DNA from: a virus
Length of the DNA: 64,000 bases
IMG/VR virus record: IMGVR_UViG_3300046777_001793
Coordinates: 56,529-120,528 of that record
Strand: one strand, 5' to 3'
Made by a program: the position numbers and the translations under genes. The notes below the pieces were generated by a model. The model saw only the letters and a program-made list of their open reading frames with translations, had not been told where the DNA came from and did no database searches. Positions 1 through 4,462 of the stretch are shown here, piece by piece; position 1 is the first letter of the stretch; every line of letters starts with the position of its first letter.

Positions 1-263
1 TATTTAAGAGTTAATACTTTAACTACACTCATTTGTGCATTTAACACTTCACCGATCGCATGATTATAAAGTGTATCTGCTAATGGAGAAGCACCCAGAT
101 TTTTTGCTCTGTACTCTTGTTCCAAAAGATCTGCTGCTTTAGCAAATAATATTTTTGCTTGTGCTACTTTATCATCTGCTGAAGGATTAAAATTTAATCC
201 TACCAATTGCTCTCCAAACGTTAGAGATCTTACTTCTACTTCCATTTTACCTTCTACTACCAT
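1..263 (-). CDS. Acb2/Tad1-hairpin-like small helical protein (candidate nucleotide-signal sponge); 3' end at window edge
   Basis: Not in ORF track. Manual translation from ATG 263: MVVEGKMEVEVRSLTFGEQLVGLNFNPSADDKVAQAKILFAKAADLLE...NHAIGEVLNAQMSVVKVLTLK. The GxxxVGLxFNPS and AxxExxxAQMxxVK pattern recalls Acb2-like helical hairpins. Confidence 0.6.
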   Translation of the reverse strand, partial: MVVEGKMEVEVRSLTFGEQLVGLNFNPSADDKVAQAKILFAKAADLLEQEYRAKNLGASPLADTLYNHAIGEVLNAQMSVVKVLTLK

Positions 264-264
264 C

Positions 265-360
265 TTACTTAGATTTTGTGATTTTTGTTTTTACTATTAC
301 TAAATGCTGAAGCCATCCTTTTAAAGCTTCAATCTTTGCTTTGTTTCCTGTTTTACTCAT
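265..360 (-). CDS. 31-aa peptide
   Basis: MSKTGNKAKIEALKGWLQHLVIVKTKITKSK; exactly fills the gap between co-oriented genes. Confidence 0.45.
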   Translation of the reverse strand: MSKTGNKAKIEALKGWLQHLVIVKTKITKSK

Positions 361-361
361 G

Positions 362-979
362 TTATTTGATTTTTGATAAGTTACGTAATCTTTCCAAAAC
401 ATCTTGGCCATTGTGGCCATCAAAAGGATATTTTGCTTTTTCTTCTACAGGTATTTGGAATAAATCCCAATCTTCTTCTTTGTAGTGATTGGTTATCATT
501 CCATCTGGTAACATTGCTACTACAATAAACCATCCGCCACCAAAACATTCTTTTCCATCATGATGTTTCCATGACTTATGAACATCATATTTGCAATGAT
601 TATATGGTTGCCCTGTGTTTTTCCATTTTGGATTCCACAATTTATTTGCAGCCCACTCATTGAACAATGCAGCATTGTACATTTTTCTGAAATCATACAA
701 CTCATTGTATGTATGGTATCCATCAGAAAATTCTCCAATCTCTGCTTCAGTTGCATAAGTCATTTCAAAGATGTCTGGTTTGCATGCGTAAAACTCACCC
801 TTTACCCCTTTTATAACATAATCTTCAAGACTTGCTCTCATGCTACCTTCCAATGTATGAATAAACAATGCATCACCTTGGAACTCAATATCATTTCCTG
901 CAAATGCTCTAATTTCATTTGCATTTAATCCTGTCCATTGAACAGCTTCTATTACTACTGGTTTCTTTGCGTATTTCAT
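362..979 (-). CDS. Two-domain protein: N-terminal [17 protein letters not shown] domain (PGDYG/Acb4-like) fused to a WDGH-type domain
   Basis: Start moved to ATG 979, next to the upstream stop. Domain 1: [43 protein letters not shown]. Domain 2: [35 protein letters not shown]. Confidence 0.7.
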
Positions 980-980
980 A

Positions 981-1334
981 CTACTTTTCATTTTTACCTT
1001 CAACTTGTCTTCTCTGTCTATCCTTAGTTCTTGCATCTTGCCAATGAATTGCTTCTTCAATCTTTGTGATTGATAAAGCATTTTCTCTACAAGGAAAAGC
1101 TTCATTTAGACTTTGAAATAAACATTTAACATATTTCAACATGTCTAATGCTTGACAACCATTTACACCCACTTCAGAAATAGGATCTGATTGAATTGTA
1201 AATTTCACTACTGGTGCAACACCTTTTACATCTTCTGCATTTTCAATTTGAATAAAATTTATTAAATGCATCTCTTGTGATGTGCTATCCATTTCTCTTT
1301 CAAGAAGATTTCTTGCTTTTTCTACGTGCCTCAT
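981..1334 (-). CDS. tad1: Thoeris anti-defence 1 (Tad1)-family sponge protein
   Basis: C-terminal [34 protein letters not shown] matches the Tad1 signature F.xRENAxAxTxxEEAxxWxxxRxxxRxxRxVxG; preceded by Q..P..EVGVNG. Confidence 0.85.
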
Positions 1335-1723
1335 TATTTATTTCTTTTTCTGTAAGACTTCAAGATTGCTAAGTAGTTGATTGCATCATCAATAGTATCA
1401 TCTACCGCTTCATCTTTTACCATTCCCTCTTTATCTAACAATGTAGATATGCGTGACATTTTATCCATTAATCTCACCAAAATTCCACGTTCAACCGGAA
1501 CACCAGCAATTGTAGAATTTCTAAAGTTTGCATAAGGATCTTTGTTACTACCCCCATAGTCATGATTTTTTCTTACTGCTGTAGCAAGACAATCAGAAAA
1601 GGTTTTTTCCATGTCATGAAGTAATGGGTTTACTTCTAACTTCTTAAGAGTTACAGGTCCGCAAACAGCTCCAACCTTTGCTTCAATTTCTGCAAGTTCT
1701 TTTAACACTTTTTCTTCAGCCAT
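1334..1723 (-). CDS. DUF1599 / nucleotide-modification-associated domain 1 (all-alpha NTP-pyrophosphatase-like)
   Basis: RKNHDYG..DPYANF..GILVRLMDKMSRI..DEAVDDTIDDAINY pattern. Confidence 0.75.
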   Translation of the reverse strand: MAEEKVLKELAEIEAKVGAVCGPVTLKKLEVNPLLHDMEKTFSDCLATAVRKNHDYGGSNKDPYANFRNSTIAGVPVERGILVRLMDKMSRISTLLDKEGMVKDEAVDDTIDDAINYLAILKSYRKRNK

Positions 1724-1725
1724 AT

Positions 1726-2157
1726 TTATTTTATTAATTGGTTACTTTTTAATATTTCACATACTTGCTCAAAAATCCATTCAGTCAAGTATGCTTCAAA
1801 CTCTACTTCTACCTTATTCAGAAAGAAGATTCTTCTTATGTGTTGCATTATGTGTACAATCTCATGAACCAATGTTTTTAAAATATTATCATCAATCTTT
1901 CTAATCACCAATGACAAATAATAATTACCTTCTTCAGTCTGATAATATTCTACATAAGCATCTGTGTAAATCTTTACATCATCATATCCATCAAATACCT
2001 CATTGACTAATTTATGCATATCCTTATCAAAATGTTTGCGTAAACTTTTCATATTTTTTACGCCACATATAAACAAGAACTCTTGATTAATCAAAGGTAT
2101 CTTGATAGACTCAACTATCTCATTTGATTTTGTAGAATTTCCCAAGGATGTTTGCAT
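1726..2157 (-). CDS. small HExxH metallopeptidase-like protein
   Basis: TLVHEIVH followed by EFEAY. Confidence 0.6.
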   Translation of the reverse strand: MQTSLGNSTKSNEIVESIKIPLINQEFLFICGVKNMKSLRKHFDKDMHKLVNEVFDGYDDVKIYTDAYVEYYQTEEGNYYLSLVIRKIDDNILKTLVHEIVHIMQHIRRIFFLNKVEVEFEAYLTEWIFEQVCEILKSNQLIK

Positions 2158-2542
2158 TTAAAAATTCATCACTCTCCAATACACCATAAGCAAATTGATA
2201 TTTACACTCCATGTAAGTCAACTCTGTTGCAGAGAAACAGATATGTAACATATCACGCTTTAGCACAATACCATCTTTATGGGCTTGTTTCAATATCTCA
2301 TTACTACTGAAATAATTTTGATAAGCAGCTTTTTTCTGAATAGTGTATTTTTTCAAACGCTTGTCTGTTACAGCAGCCAATTCCCTTTTACCCATCTTCT
2401 TTTTTGTCTGTGAATAAAAGTTCTTCTTACCAATATATCTCACAGACTTTCCATCAACAATACCACTTATCTCATAGATAAATCCTACTGCATTATCTGG
2501 AATGTCACTATCCTTAAACTCTTTACCTTGATACAACCACAT
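2120..2542 (-). CDS. GIY-YIG family nuclease
   Basis: GFIYEI...YIGKK motif, later ELTYME and FLNANI. Confidence 0.7.
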   Translation of the reverse strand: MWLYQGKEFKDSDIPDNAVGFIYEISGIVDGKSVRYIGKKNFYSQTKKKMGKRELAAVTDKRLKKYTIQKKAAYQNYFSSNEILKQAHKDGIVLKRDMLHICFSATELTYMECKYQFAYGVLESDEFLNANILGKFYKIK

Positions 2543-2690
2543 AAATAAGAATTATTATAATTAATACTACTATGAACAAAAAAGGAACAAGACATCCACC
2601 ATGAACTCTACCCTCATAATCATCCCAATCATCCAATCCCTGTATATAAACCTCATTGTATTTAAAATCTGTGTTTTGCTCTTCTGCCAT
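2523..2690 (-). CDS. 55-aa membrane protein
   Basis: Manual translation MAEEQNTDFKYNEVYIQGLDDWDDYEGRVHGGCLVPFLFIVVLIIIILIYVVVSR; C-terminal TM helix. Confidence 0.5.
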   Translation of the reverse strand: MAEEQNTDFKYNEVYIQGLDDWDDYEGRVHGGCLVPFLFIVVLIIIILIYVVVSR

Positions 2691-2928
2691 AATTTAATGT
2701 TTGTTTACTAAATGCGTGTGTTGTACTAAAGTGATGTGCTGAAACAACAAAGTCATGTGGATTTTTGTATCTCTTTTCCACTCTTTGTCCAACTGCAACC
2801 TCTACAAACTTTGGAAAAAACTGATTAAGTTCTACTCCTATGCAATACGTTCCTATAAAAAGTTTCTTCTTGCACATATCACTAAATACAGTAATTGCTC
2901 TAATCATCAGCTCCCACAATTTAAACAA
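2662..2928 (-). CDS. hypothetical protein
   Basis: ORF in operon order; start uncertain. Confidence 0.45.
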   Translation of the reverse strand: MFKLWELMIRAITVFSDMCKKKLFIGTYCIGVELNQFFPKFVEVAVGQRVEKRYKNPHDFVVSAHHFSTTHAFSKQTLNYGRRAKHRF

Positions 2929-3086
2929 CCCTCATCATCATCTTCTTCCGGATGAGTTTCAATTCTAGGATTTAGAATTTTTTTCAACTCATAAATCTCC
3001 TGTTGTATATCTCCATCCTGGAAAATATCACCAGTCAATTGCGTTCTCAATTCCGCAATCTTTGCTTTGATTTCATTTTCTTCCAT
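2907..3086 (-). CDS. small protein with acidic C-terminal CxxCGS tail
   Basis: MEENEIK...EEDDDEGCLNCGS; ATG 3086 preferred. Confidence 0.6.
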   Translation of the reverse strand: MEENEIKAKIAELRTQLTGDIFQDGDIQQEIYELKKILNPRIETHPEEDDDEGCLNCGS

Positions 3087-3203
3087 ACTTTCTAGCTCTT
3101 TGTACTTTTTTAAACATTCTCTTACCTTCCTTTTCCATCTTGTGTTTCTTATACTCAAACTCATTCATTGGAGCACATGCTGAAATAAAAAGAAACAATA
3201 TCA

Positions 3204-3725
3204 TTACTCTATACATTCCTTCTTTTTAAATTTTTCAAACACATCAAACACCTTATTCTCAAAAACCTTTCTCTTTCTTGACAAAAATGGATTCAGCATA
3301 TAACACACACGCACCTCACCATAAATCCTACCCTTAATCTGATATAACACCCCAGCAGAAACCAAACGTGTAATCAACTTCATAAACATGCTCTTTGATG
3401 AAATCTCTAAATACTTTTGTAGAGATTCATTTGTATGAGGTATAGTATTATTAAATACAATGTTCAAAGGAGTCTTTGTAACAACACTCATCTTAATCAC
3501 ATTTGCAAGATCACTATTGTTCAACAACTTTGTTAATTCCAATAAAGCTTCAGTTTCTAATACAGCATAATCATTAGAAGTAATCATACTCATACCAGTT
3601 TCCTTACTCACATTAACTCCTTCAGGAACTTCAGCCAATACCTTAACCTCACCTGTAACCTCATCTACATAAGATTCCAAATCTAACTCCACGTTACTCT
3701 TTAAGGACTTTACTTTAGCACTCAT
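3204..3725 (-). CDS. RepL-like winged-helix replication/regulatory protein
   Basis: HTH-like region followed by YMLNPFL, typical of the RepL family; adjacent iteron-like repeats. Confidence 0.65.
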   Translation of the reverse strand: MSAKVKSLKSNVELDLESYVDEVTGEVKVLAEVPEGVNVSKETGMSMITSNDYAVLETEALLELTKLLNNSDLANVIKMSVVTKTPLNIVFNNTIPHTNESLQKYLEISSKSMFMKLITRLVSAGVLYQIKGRIYGEVRVCYMLNPFLSRKRKVFENKVFDVFEKFKKKECIE

Positions 3726-3745
3726 CTGTCATTTCATTTACAGGA

Positions 3746-3753
3746 CAAATATA
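3746..3753 (-). promoter_or_regulatory. Bacteroidetes -7 element (TATATTTG) for the repL operon
   Basis: Matches TAnnTTTG, 20 nt upstream of the repL ATG; no clear -33 element. Confidence 0.55.
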
Positions 3754-3754
3754 A

Positions 3755-3851
3755 CTAAAAATAACACTTTTGTGCTAAAAATAACACTTTATTTTTTACC
3801 CAGGTGCTAAAAATAACACCTGTGAGCCTTGTGAGGTGCTAAAAATAACAC
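3755..3851. repeat. four iteron-like direct repeats CTAAAAATAACAC
   Basis: Exact 13-mers at 3755, 3775, 3807 and 3839 (spacing 20, 32, 32); last two extend to the pseudo-palindrome AGGTGCTAAAAATAACACCT. Confidence 0.9.
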
Positions 3852-4236
3852 CTGATAAAAACCCCCACAACCCTTGAAAACATTGGGCTATCCCCCCATC
3901 CTAAGCAAAAACGTACTTATTCTTATTTAGGAGCACATGATGCTAACGCTATAAAGAGAAATTCATGTGTGTGGCGGAGAATGGGTATATTGAAAATTAT
4001 GGATATAATGGTGTGTATGGGTCCTTCCATTATTTGCCCCCCGGGCAAACACAATGTCAGGTGTACCCCCTAGGCAAGCAGCAGGCACAGAGGTTATTGT
4101 TATAGCATAATGACATTAATTTTCTCCAGGGAAGAAGTTTGTGTGCCAGAGGAGAAGGGTGCTTGTCAAGAGAGTGCTTGGGAAGCAGAGCAAGAGAAGA
4201 GAGTGACACAGGAAGGAAGATGCAGGGCAAGGTCTT

Positions 4237-4264
4237 ATTCTATATTAATGACCTCTCGGTCATT
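4237..4264 (+). promoter_or_regulatory. hairpin repeat 1 (candidate virion-RNAP promoter)
   Basis: ATTCTATATT + AATGACC-TCTC-GGTCATT, 15 nt before ATG 4280. Confidence 0.55.
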
Positions 4265-4279
4265 TTAAATTTTATAATT

Positions 4280-4462
4280 ATGAAAAATTTTTCAGTAAGA
4301 GAAATGATTATCATACTAAATGTTGTGGTAATCATTGCATTAGCAGGTTCATTGACTGCTTTATGCATTACAACTAATGTTGTGTTTGTGTACACCTTTG
4401 TGTGCACAGCACCAGTTGCTATGCTTTGTGTTTTAATACTTGATAAGTATGAGAAACAATAA
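4280..4462 (+). CDS. small two-TM membrane protein
   Basis: ATG 4280 (MKNFSVREMIII...), two hydrophobic segments. Confidence 0.65.
   Translation: MKNFSVREMIIILNVVVIIALAGSLTALCITTNVVFVYTFVCTAPVAMLCVLILDKYEKQ

Follow-up and report, generated by a model that had tools for sequence, protein, structure and literature searches.

The first genes of a 64,000-nucleotide stretch of viral DNA (IMG/VR virus record IMGVR_UViG_3300046777_001793; the whole stretch is called the window below) form a compact minus-strand run, A to E, in which gene D is a true homologue of the immune-signal sponge Tad1 and occupies an exchangeable slot of a conserved accessory module. Two genes from the conserved part of this module, gene C, which joins a PGDYG-like domain to a WDGH domain, and gene A, a small helical protein, appear from their sequences to be credible candidates for new inhibitors of immune signalling. 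Only Tad1 is established as a sponge homologue, the other genes being candidates. Taken as a whole, the explanation that a Tad1 sponge sits in the exchangeable slot, accompanied by two probable further inhibitors, is the one we favour, with moderate confidence. It builds on homology, residue conservation, synteny and domain fusions, from which we infer ligand binding and defence inhibition. Sponge proteins that take up immune nucleotides are a main phage route past Thoeris and CBASS, and new sponge families have recently been found via domains fused to known sponges.

Gene D is a Tad1 homologue

We compared gene D with all solved protein chains. The first-pass annotation had noted a Tad1 C-terminal signature in this gene, and phmmer supports it fully: the best match is CmTad1 (8kbb, E 4e-12), CbTad1 (7uav) follows at 3.8e-6, and the solved Tad1 chains 8kbg, 8kbh, 7uav and 8kbe range from 3.7e-6 to 4.7e-6. 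The sole solved match outside Tad1 is gp184, a protein of 230 residues (8y6v_I, E 2.9e-4), and the Tad1-like C-terminal part also matches PHROGs of 200-230 residues, which implies that longer proteins with a Tad1-like end exist. Homologues of gene D in Bacillus phages carry the label 'putative structural protein'. In all, gene D has 896 homologues, and a precomputed match to PF24729, the Acb2/Tad1 hairpin family, is recorded for 118 of the 120 listed.

Binding-site residues were mapped via the phmmer alignments onto those named in an earlier paper (10.1101/2023.11.15.567273). The numbering of that paper fits the 124-residue CbTad1 chain directly and, once shifted by 10, the CmTad1 chain too, and we accepted it because every named residue then meets its correct letter. 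For the cyclic-trinucleotide site, the paper names R90 and T97 in CbTad1 and C87, R88, A91, M92 and T95 in CmTad1. The two CbTad1 residues correspond to R83 and T90 of gene D, and four of the five CmTad1 residues are identical in gene D (C82, R83, A86 and T90), M92 being replaced by L87. Among the residues it names for the gcADPR/dinucleotide pocket of CbTad1 (F82, N92, R109 and R113), the last three are kept as N85, R102 and R106, and F82 corresponds to L76. All of 31 crAss-type homologues of gene D keep N85, R102, R106 and L76, and T90 is almost invariant among them. Altogether, the trinucleotide residues and three of the four gcADPR residues are retained, and nucleotide binding and inhibition of defence by gene D are predicted on this basis.

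A relative of gene D occurs in 73 of 50,697 deposited phage records, at no more than 39% identity and mostly in Bacillus phages; none of these 73 records is listed as crAss-like or Bacteroides. Likewise, a literature search judged from abstracts found no report of Tad1 in crAss-like phages.

Tad1 occupies an exchangeable slot

Among the loci fetched via gene A, three (L075, L076 and L077) are close relatives of the window, with proteins 53-81% identical to their window counterparts. They share the order SegE, DUF1599 gene, slot, PGDYG/WDGH gene, peptide, gene A, GroES-like gene, 81-residue gene and tail fibre. The slot is empty in L075 and L076, where the DUF1599 gene adjoins gene C directly, and in L077 it holds a Tad2-like gene of 95 residues (PF11195, E 3.4e-22, 79 bits against a cut-off of 25). 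In the window it holds Tad1, with translational coupling kept, as genes E and D share 1 nt at a TAATG junction. The slot is hence one for exchangeable sponge genes, set in an otherwise conserved accessory module, and Tad1 is its occupant here. Compared with L076 and L077, the window has an additional gene, encoding an HExxH protein, between SegE and DUF1599. Furthermore, a Tad1 gene 95% identical to gene D lies in another locus (L005:1619-1972) beside a DUF3127-like gene and without the backbone genes; since the context of this copy is quite different, it suggests that the Tad1 cassette has recently been exchanged horizontally by different phage lineages.

We also asked how sponge genes are distributed around gene A, using 80 gene-A loci kept from 270. 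In a contrast made within these loci themselves, Tad1 or Tad2 open reading frames account for 7 of the 459 lying at most three genes from A and for 0 of the 621 farther away (Fisher 0.0024), and because two pairs of loci (L092/L093 and L118/L119) have identical gene maps, these seven represent about five independent cases. Tad1 genes are present in 2 of the 80 loci and Tad2-like genes in 5, a count obtained with one query, so that divergent Tad2 genes are missed. Seen from the Tad1 side, 6 of 68 loci have an A-like gene at most 1.8 kb away, and 9 of 68 have a PGDYG-like gene. A Pfam scan of 145 representatives of unlabelled neighbour clusters assigned one cluster to Tad2 and another to PF21825; the others are ordinary phage genes, matching Cpn10, thymidylate synthases, PhoH, thioredoxin or nucleases, or are without match. 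At L104:379-891, gene A and the GroES-like gene are separated by a gene for a protein of 170 residues, which is Tad2-like in part and may be another sponge fusion.

Gene C joins a PGDYG-like domain to a WDGH domain

Gene C had been described as a two-domain fusion, and this is confirmed: its WDGH domain (PF25311) scores 113.3 bits against a cut-off of 27 (E 7e-33) and is preceded by a separate N-terminal domain. Relatives of the latter include at least 7993 stand-alone phage proteins of about 80 residues (7993 among 8000 scored candidates). PF14083 (PGDYG) matches 20 of 34 such relatives weakly, with a best E of 6.5e-5, and gene C itself is without a match. A search for Acb4, one of the checks suggested in the first-pass annotation, was negative: PF13876 is absent from gene C, from all 34 relatives (0/34) and, as are Tad2 (PF11195) and Sequestin (PF21825), from the whole genome at E<=10. 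An Acb4 identity of the N-terminal domain was rejected on these sequence grounds.

The AlphaFold2 model of gene C is confident (pLDDT 93) and comprises six strands and two helices. No solved structural relative of the model was found, and a search of PDB sequences with gene C and a profile search with its N-terminal domain returned nothing. In BFVD, the relatives of the model are uncharacterised proteins named 'PGDYG protein' and 'WDGH domain-containing', from phages of many hosts. In the literature, searches for WDGH or PF25311 brought up nothing relevant, and no listed paper from 2022 onward mentions PGDYG or PF14083.

Of the best 150 WDGH representatives, 149 carry the WDGH domain and 13 also the PGDYG-like domain; a sponge is fused in three of the 150, Tad2 in two and PF21825 (crAss001_48/Sequestin) in one. 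P0363 is 58% identical to gene C over residues 2-205 and carries in addition a C-terminal Tad2 domain (58 bits, cut-off 25), and P0390, 50% identical over the full length, likewise ends in a Tad2 domain (32.8 bits, same cut-off). Across the 150 relatives, certain His, Asp and Cys columns hardly vary, and gene C, read from its sequence, has all of them. A set so well conserved would fit an enzyme or a metal-binding protein, and a catalytic or metal-binding role for WDGH may be supposed.

Gene A is a conserved helical protein

The complete open reading frame of gene A encodes 88 residues (L001:1497-1763). Most homologues start at Met7, giving 82 residues, and this is probably the start of gene A too. 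Of its 146 relatives in a large protein collection none carries a Pfam domain, and searches of PHROG, Pfam and NCBIfam with gene A itself gave no match. The model (pLDDT 89) combines a short helix with a hairpin of two helices. Self-association is predicted for four copies, with a score of 0.66 against 0.08 for the best control; contact agreement between runs is at least 93% and the partner pLDDT at least 77. The mark set for self-association is reached by 20 of 30 solved same-chain pairs and by 1 of 23 solved single chains, a calibration that is only rough, as our own alignment and four copies were used and the Acb2 hexamer has six. In cultured phages, homologues of gene A occupy moron-like places: in Providencia phage PS3 the gene has internal virion proteins on both sides, and in Aaphi23 it separates the lysis genes from terS.

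The first-pass annotation had called gene A Acb2/Tad1-hairpin-like. The analysis does not establish this, as the evidence is sub-threshold throughout and the profile-profile comparison is negative. Weak matches to PF24729, below threshold, occur in 7 of 38 relatives (best E 0.0092), and in the best of these, P0051, residues 64-116 align with profile positions 1-50, the whole hairpin. Among 30 Atlas feature matches of gene A, 29 fall in the PF24729 set, and the cluster at rank 3 is 88% PF24729 (score 0.90). The gene-A profile compared by hhalign gives a probability of 0.11% with T4 Vs.4, 0.22% with the Tad1 clade and 0.36% with 38 Vs.4 homologues. Sequence and profile searches of the PDB returned nothing relevant for gene A, and Foldseek against the PDB gave no match at E<=0.001, Acb2 (8h2j) appearing at rank 36 with E 5.7. 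A correspondence with the Tyr/Lys dinucleotide pocket of Acb2 at F25/K37 is seen only in a non-significant alignment. Altogether, we lean slightly towards homology of gene A with the Acb2/Tad1 hairpin, and consider a sponge function less probable than this homology.

One relative (L074:3112-4331) has two paralogues of gene A, one on each side of the PGDYG/WDGH gene, with identities to gene A of 41% and 91%. The second copy is followed there by the conserved peptide, and the GroES-like gene is found on the upstream side, not on the downstream one.

Proposed mechanism and alternatives

We propose that gene D would act as a Tad1-family sponge, by homology a hexamer formed as a trimer of dimers. 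TIR-made gcADPR and some cyclic dinucleotides would be sequestered in its dimer-interface pockets and cyclic trinucleotides in two trimer-interface pockets, and Thoeris and CBASS signalling would be blunted in a host that probably belongs to the Bacteroidota. The cassette would be one occupant of an exchangeable slot in a conserved, translationally coupled module that heads the leftward arm into the structural genes. Two backbone genes would be probable further inhibitors of nucleotide signalling, namely the PGDYG-like/WDGH protein, possibly acting as an enzyme or through a metal site, and gene A, a predicted self-associating helical protein that is maybe a remote relative of the Acb2/Tad1 hairpin.

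Several observations weigh against this explanation. Against PF24729, gene D scores 19.6-20 bits, below the gathering cut-off of 27 bits, and only five of the eight named hexamer-interface residues of CmTad1 are identical in it. Since pocket residue F82 is Leu throughout the gene D clade, the ligand specificity of gene D may differ from that of known Tad1 proteins. For gene A, the structural scores are no better than for unrelated hairpins, and its commonest neighbours are GroES-like (41 of the 80 loci) and PGDYG-like genes (39 of the 80), not sponges. At least 50 of the 68 Tad1 loci have none of the other genes of the window. The earlier description of the run as an anti-signalling island stands in part: it is a hotspot, with Tad1 here, Tad2 in L077 and nothing in L075 and L076, but DUF1599, C, B and A form a conserved backbone in the relatives and not a mosaic island. 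Guilt by association is therefore weaker than was first assumed, and the backbone genes may border the slot simply because insertions are favoured there. Gene E and the peptide encoded by gene B had likewise been put forward as inhibitor candidates. Gene B is a real gene, since it is conserved at the protein level; what links both genes to anti-defence is their position.

These points lead to a narrower account, in which Tad1 is the only anti-defence gene, the conserved backbone of DUF1599, PGDYG/WDGH protein, peptide and gene A serves elsewhere, for example in nucleotide metabolism or in the modification of DNA, and the gap is a tolerated moron site. The backbone is 66-81% identical in L075-L077 whether or not a sponge gene is present, as this account would have it, yet two independent full-length relatives of gene C that end in an extra Tad2 domain speak against it, as does one WDGH protein fused to Sequestin. 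A role in nucleotide metabolism would agree with the Pfam description of DUF1599 ('nucleotide modification associated domain 1'), with the matches of PGDYG-like domains to phrog_4159 (nucleotide pyrophosphohydrolase) and to a QueE-like BFVD protein, and with the thymidylate synthase genes near Tad1 in some loci. A tolerant insertion site, for which the second, unrelated insertion of the HExxH gene F speaks, has to be set against the clustering of sponge genes within three genes of A and against the moron-like places of gene A homologues in the unrelated cultured phages PS3 and Aaphi23. We regard this account as possible, though rather unlikely. That gene A, perhaps with the 31-residue peptide, is a morphogenesis or chaperonin-associated factor partnering the GroES-like co-chaperonin, and no immune inhibitor, seems improbable: the GroES-like gene, where present, usually lies immediately downstream of gene A and the arm of structural genes begins with this module, but gene A homologues are found in phages without an adjacent GroES-like gene and the family-level signals, though weak, favour the Acb2/Tad1 hairpin.

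Returning to the explanation that we favour, a Tad1 sponge with two probable further inhibitors, a bolder form of it would make the conserved module a set of unrecognised inhibitors. WDGH would then destroy or trap an immune nucleotide, either as a new enzyme that depends on His or as a binder that depends on a metal; the very abundant PGDYG-like domain would capture the ligand for it or be a sponge itself, and gene A would found a divergent third branch within the Acb2/Tad1 hairpin superfamily, with Tad1 or Tad2 added by cassette exchange or fusion. We offer this only tentatively, and would not expect it to hold in full.

In either form, Tad1 reveals that a lineage akin to the crAss-like phages has a sponge slot with exchangeable contents. 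The PGDYG-like, WDGH and gene A families are very common in phages and are without known function; if they do include further inhibitors, thousands of phage proteins would gain a function, and the PGDYG/WDGH/Tad2 triple fusions and the exchange of Tad1 for Tad2 provide concrete leads. The published homologue lists of Tad1, Acb2, Sequestin, Lockin and Acb5 (supplementary tables) may already include some of these proteins.

Neighbouring genes and genome

The five abutting minus-strand genes of the first-pass annotation were recovered at the same coordinates and on the same strand (Table 1), with neighbours spaced by 0-1 nt: besides the E/D overlap, gaps of 1 nt separate D from C, C from B and B from A. 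Chance open reading frames were considered and rejected, as every gene, the 31-residue one included, has relatives conserved at the protein level.

Table 1. Coordinates of the gene run and its upstream neighbours in the window
Feature	Position	Strand	Description
Gene A	1..263	-	88 residues, last codon and stop beyond the window edge; three-helix protein
Gene B	265..360	-	31-residue conserved micro-protein, MSKTxNKxKIEALKGWL...
Gene C	362-979	-	Two-domain protein: PGDYG-like N-terminal domain and WDGH
Gene C, WDGH domain	380..736	-	Residues 82-200, His-rich; PF25311
Gene C, N-terminal domain	740..979	-	Residues 1-80, PGDYG-like, beta-rich
Gene D	981..1334	-	117 residues, Tad1-family sponge homologue in the variable slot; phmmer to solved Tad1
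Gene E	1334..1723	-	129 residues, member of the DUF1599 ('nucleotide modification associated domain 1') family; part of the backbone
Gene F	1726..2157	-	143 residues with HExxH motif; second variable insertion, between SegE and DUF1599
SegE	2120..2542	-	SegE-type GIY-YIG homing endonuclease; PF19835, E 1.3e-20; backbone neighbour

The DUF1599 label given earlier to gene E is upheld by the Atlas features, where 29 of 30 matches fall in the DUF1599 set (top score 0.95); in Pfam, PF07659 scores 18.8 bits, below the cut-off of 25 (20.2 bits in the L077 orthologue). Gene E also matches phrog_1485 (E 2e-14), and its orthologues in L075-L077 are 75-81% identical. A search of PDB sequences with gene E found nothing, and the literature retrieved on DUF1599 mentions it in passing only. 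The peptide of gene B was found in 14 of 149 loci (tblastn, E<0.05) and adjoins a gene-A homologue in the mapped loci. Upstream of gene E follow the HExxH protein of gene F, absent from L076 and L077 and without a tblastn match in the 50,697 phage records, and then the SegE-type endonuclease, with orthologues in L076 and L077 that are 68-69% identical.

The run extends past these genes, upstream to position 3725 and downstream into a GroES-like gene of 93 residues, the 81-residue gene and tail-fibre-like genes. The GroES-like call is an NCBIfam match with E 1e-4, below the cut-off; Cpn10 is matched by four representatives of neighbour clusters from related loci. The gene run is the start of a long leftward arm that passes from small genes to tail-fibre, head and packaging genes, and a divergent intergenic region at about 3726-4448 parts this arm from the rightward one.

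The source record is a virus of 120,528 bp with direct terminal repeats and 30.7% G+C, of which the window comprises bases 56529-120528. The large terminase (TerL), portal and major head proteins of the genome match phage families, and TerL is about 25% identical to the terminases of crAss-like phages of Bacteroides, Flavobacterium and Azobacteroides. On this basis, the phage can reasonably be called a distant crAss-like phage, so that its earlier assignment to this group is sustained for a remote member. Searched by blastn against phages, window positions 1-4000 gave short patches only.

Comparison with known systems

Among known sponges, gene D is closest to Tad1 (CmTad1, 8kbb; CbTad1, 7uav/7uaw). 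With 117 residues it is slightly shorter than these proteins (123-138 residues), shows significant similarity across the C-terminal two thirds, keeps the ...R..VEG.N tail and conserves the R/T residues for cyclic trinucleotides and the N/R/R residues for gcADPR. It differs in an N-terminal third that cannot be aligned, in the Phe-to-Leu change in the pocket and in a Pfam score below the cut-off, and it is encoded by a distant crAss-like phage. Gene A shows no significant sequence or profile similarity to Acb2 and T4 Vs.4 (8h2j, 8h2x, 7uq2). It has an invariant N-terminal FGE..G motif without a counterpart in Vs.4, and F25 is not conserved throughout its family.

Acb4 belongs to PF13876 (SPO1) and is described as having three strands and five helices (PMC11722364). 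The N-terminal domain of gene C resembles it in being a small phage domain of about 80-96 residues that occurs alone or fused, but gene C has no PF13876 match and its model has six strands and two helices. From a simple sponge, WDGH would differ by its conserved His/Asp/Cys set, which is suggestive of catalysis.

The closest parallel to the gene C family is provided by the sponge fusions behind the discovery of Sequestin, which in Tal et al. are Tad2-Acb4 and Tad2/Acb4-PF21825, with PF21825 given as the Sequestin sponge family (10.1101/2025.07.12.664507). The Pfam name of PF21825 is 'crAss001_48', and by this name crAss-like phages are already tied to the Sequestin family. Fusions of the gene C family to sponges are few, three of the 150 WDGH representatives; as in the Sequestin-type fusions, however, PGDYG-like and WDGH domains are joined to Tad2 and to PF21825, and the family also adjoins Tad1 and Tad2 genes.

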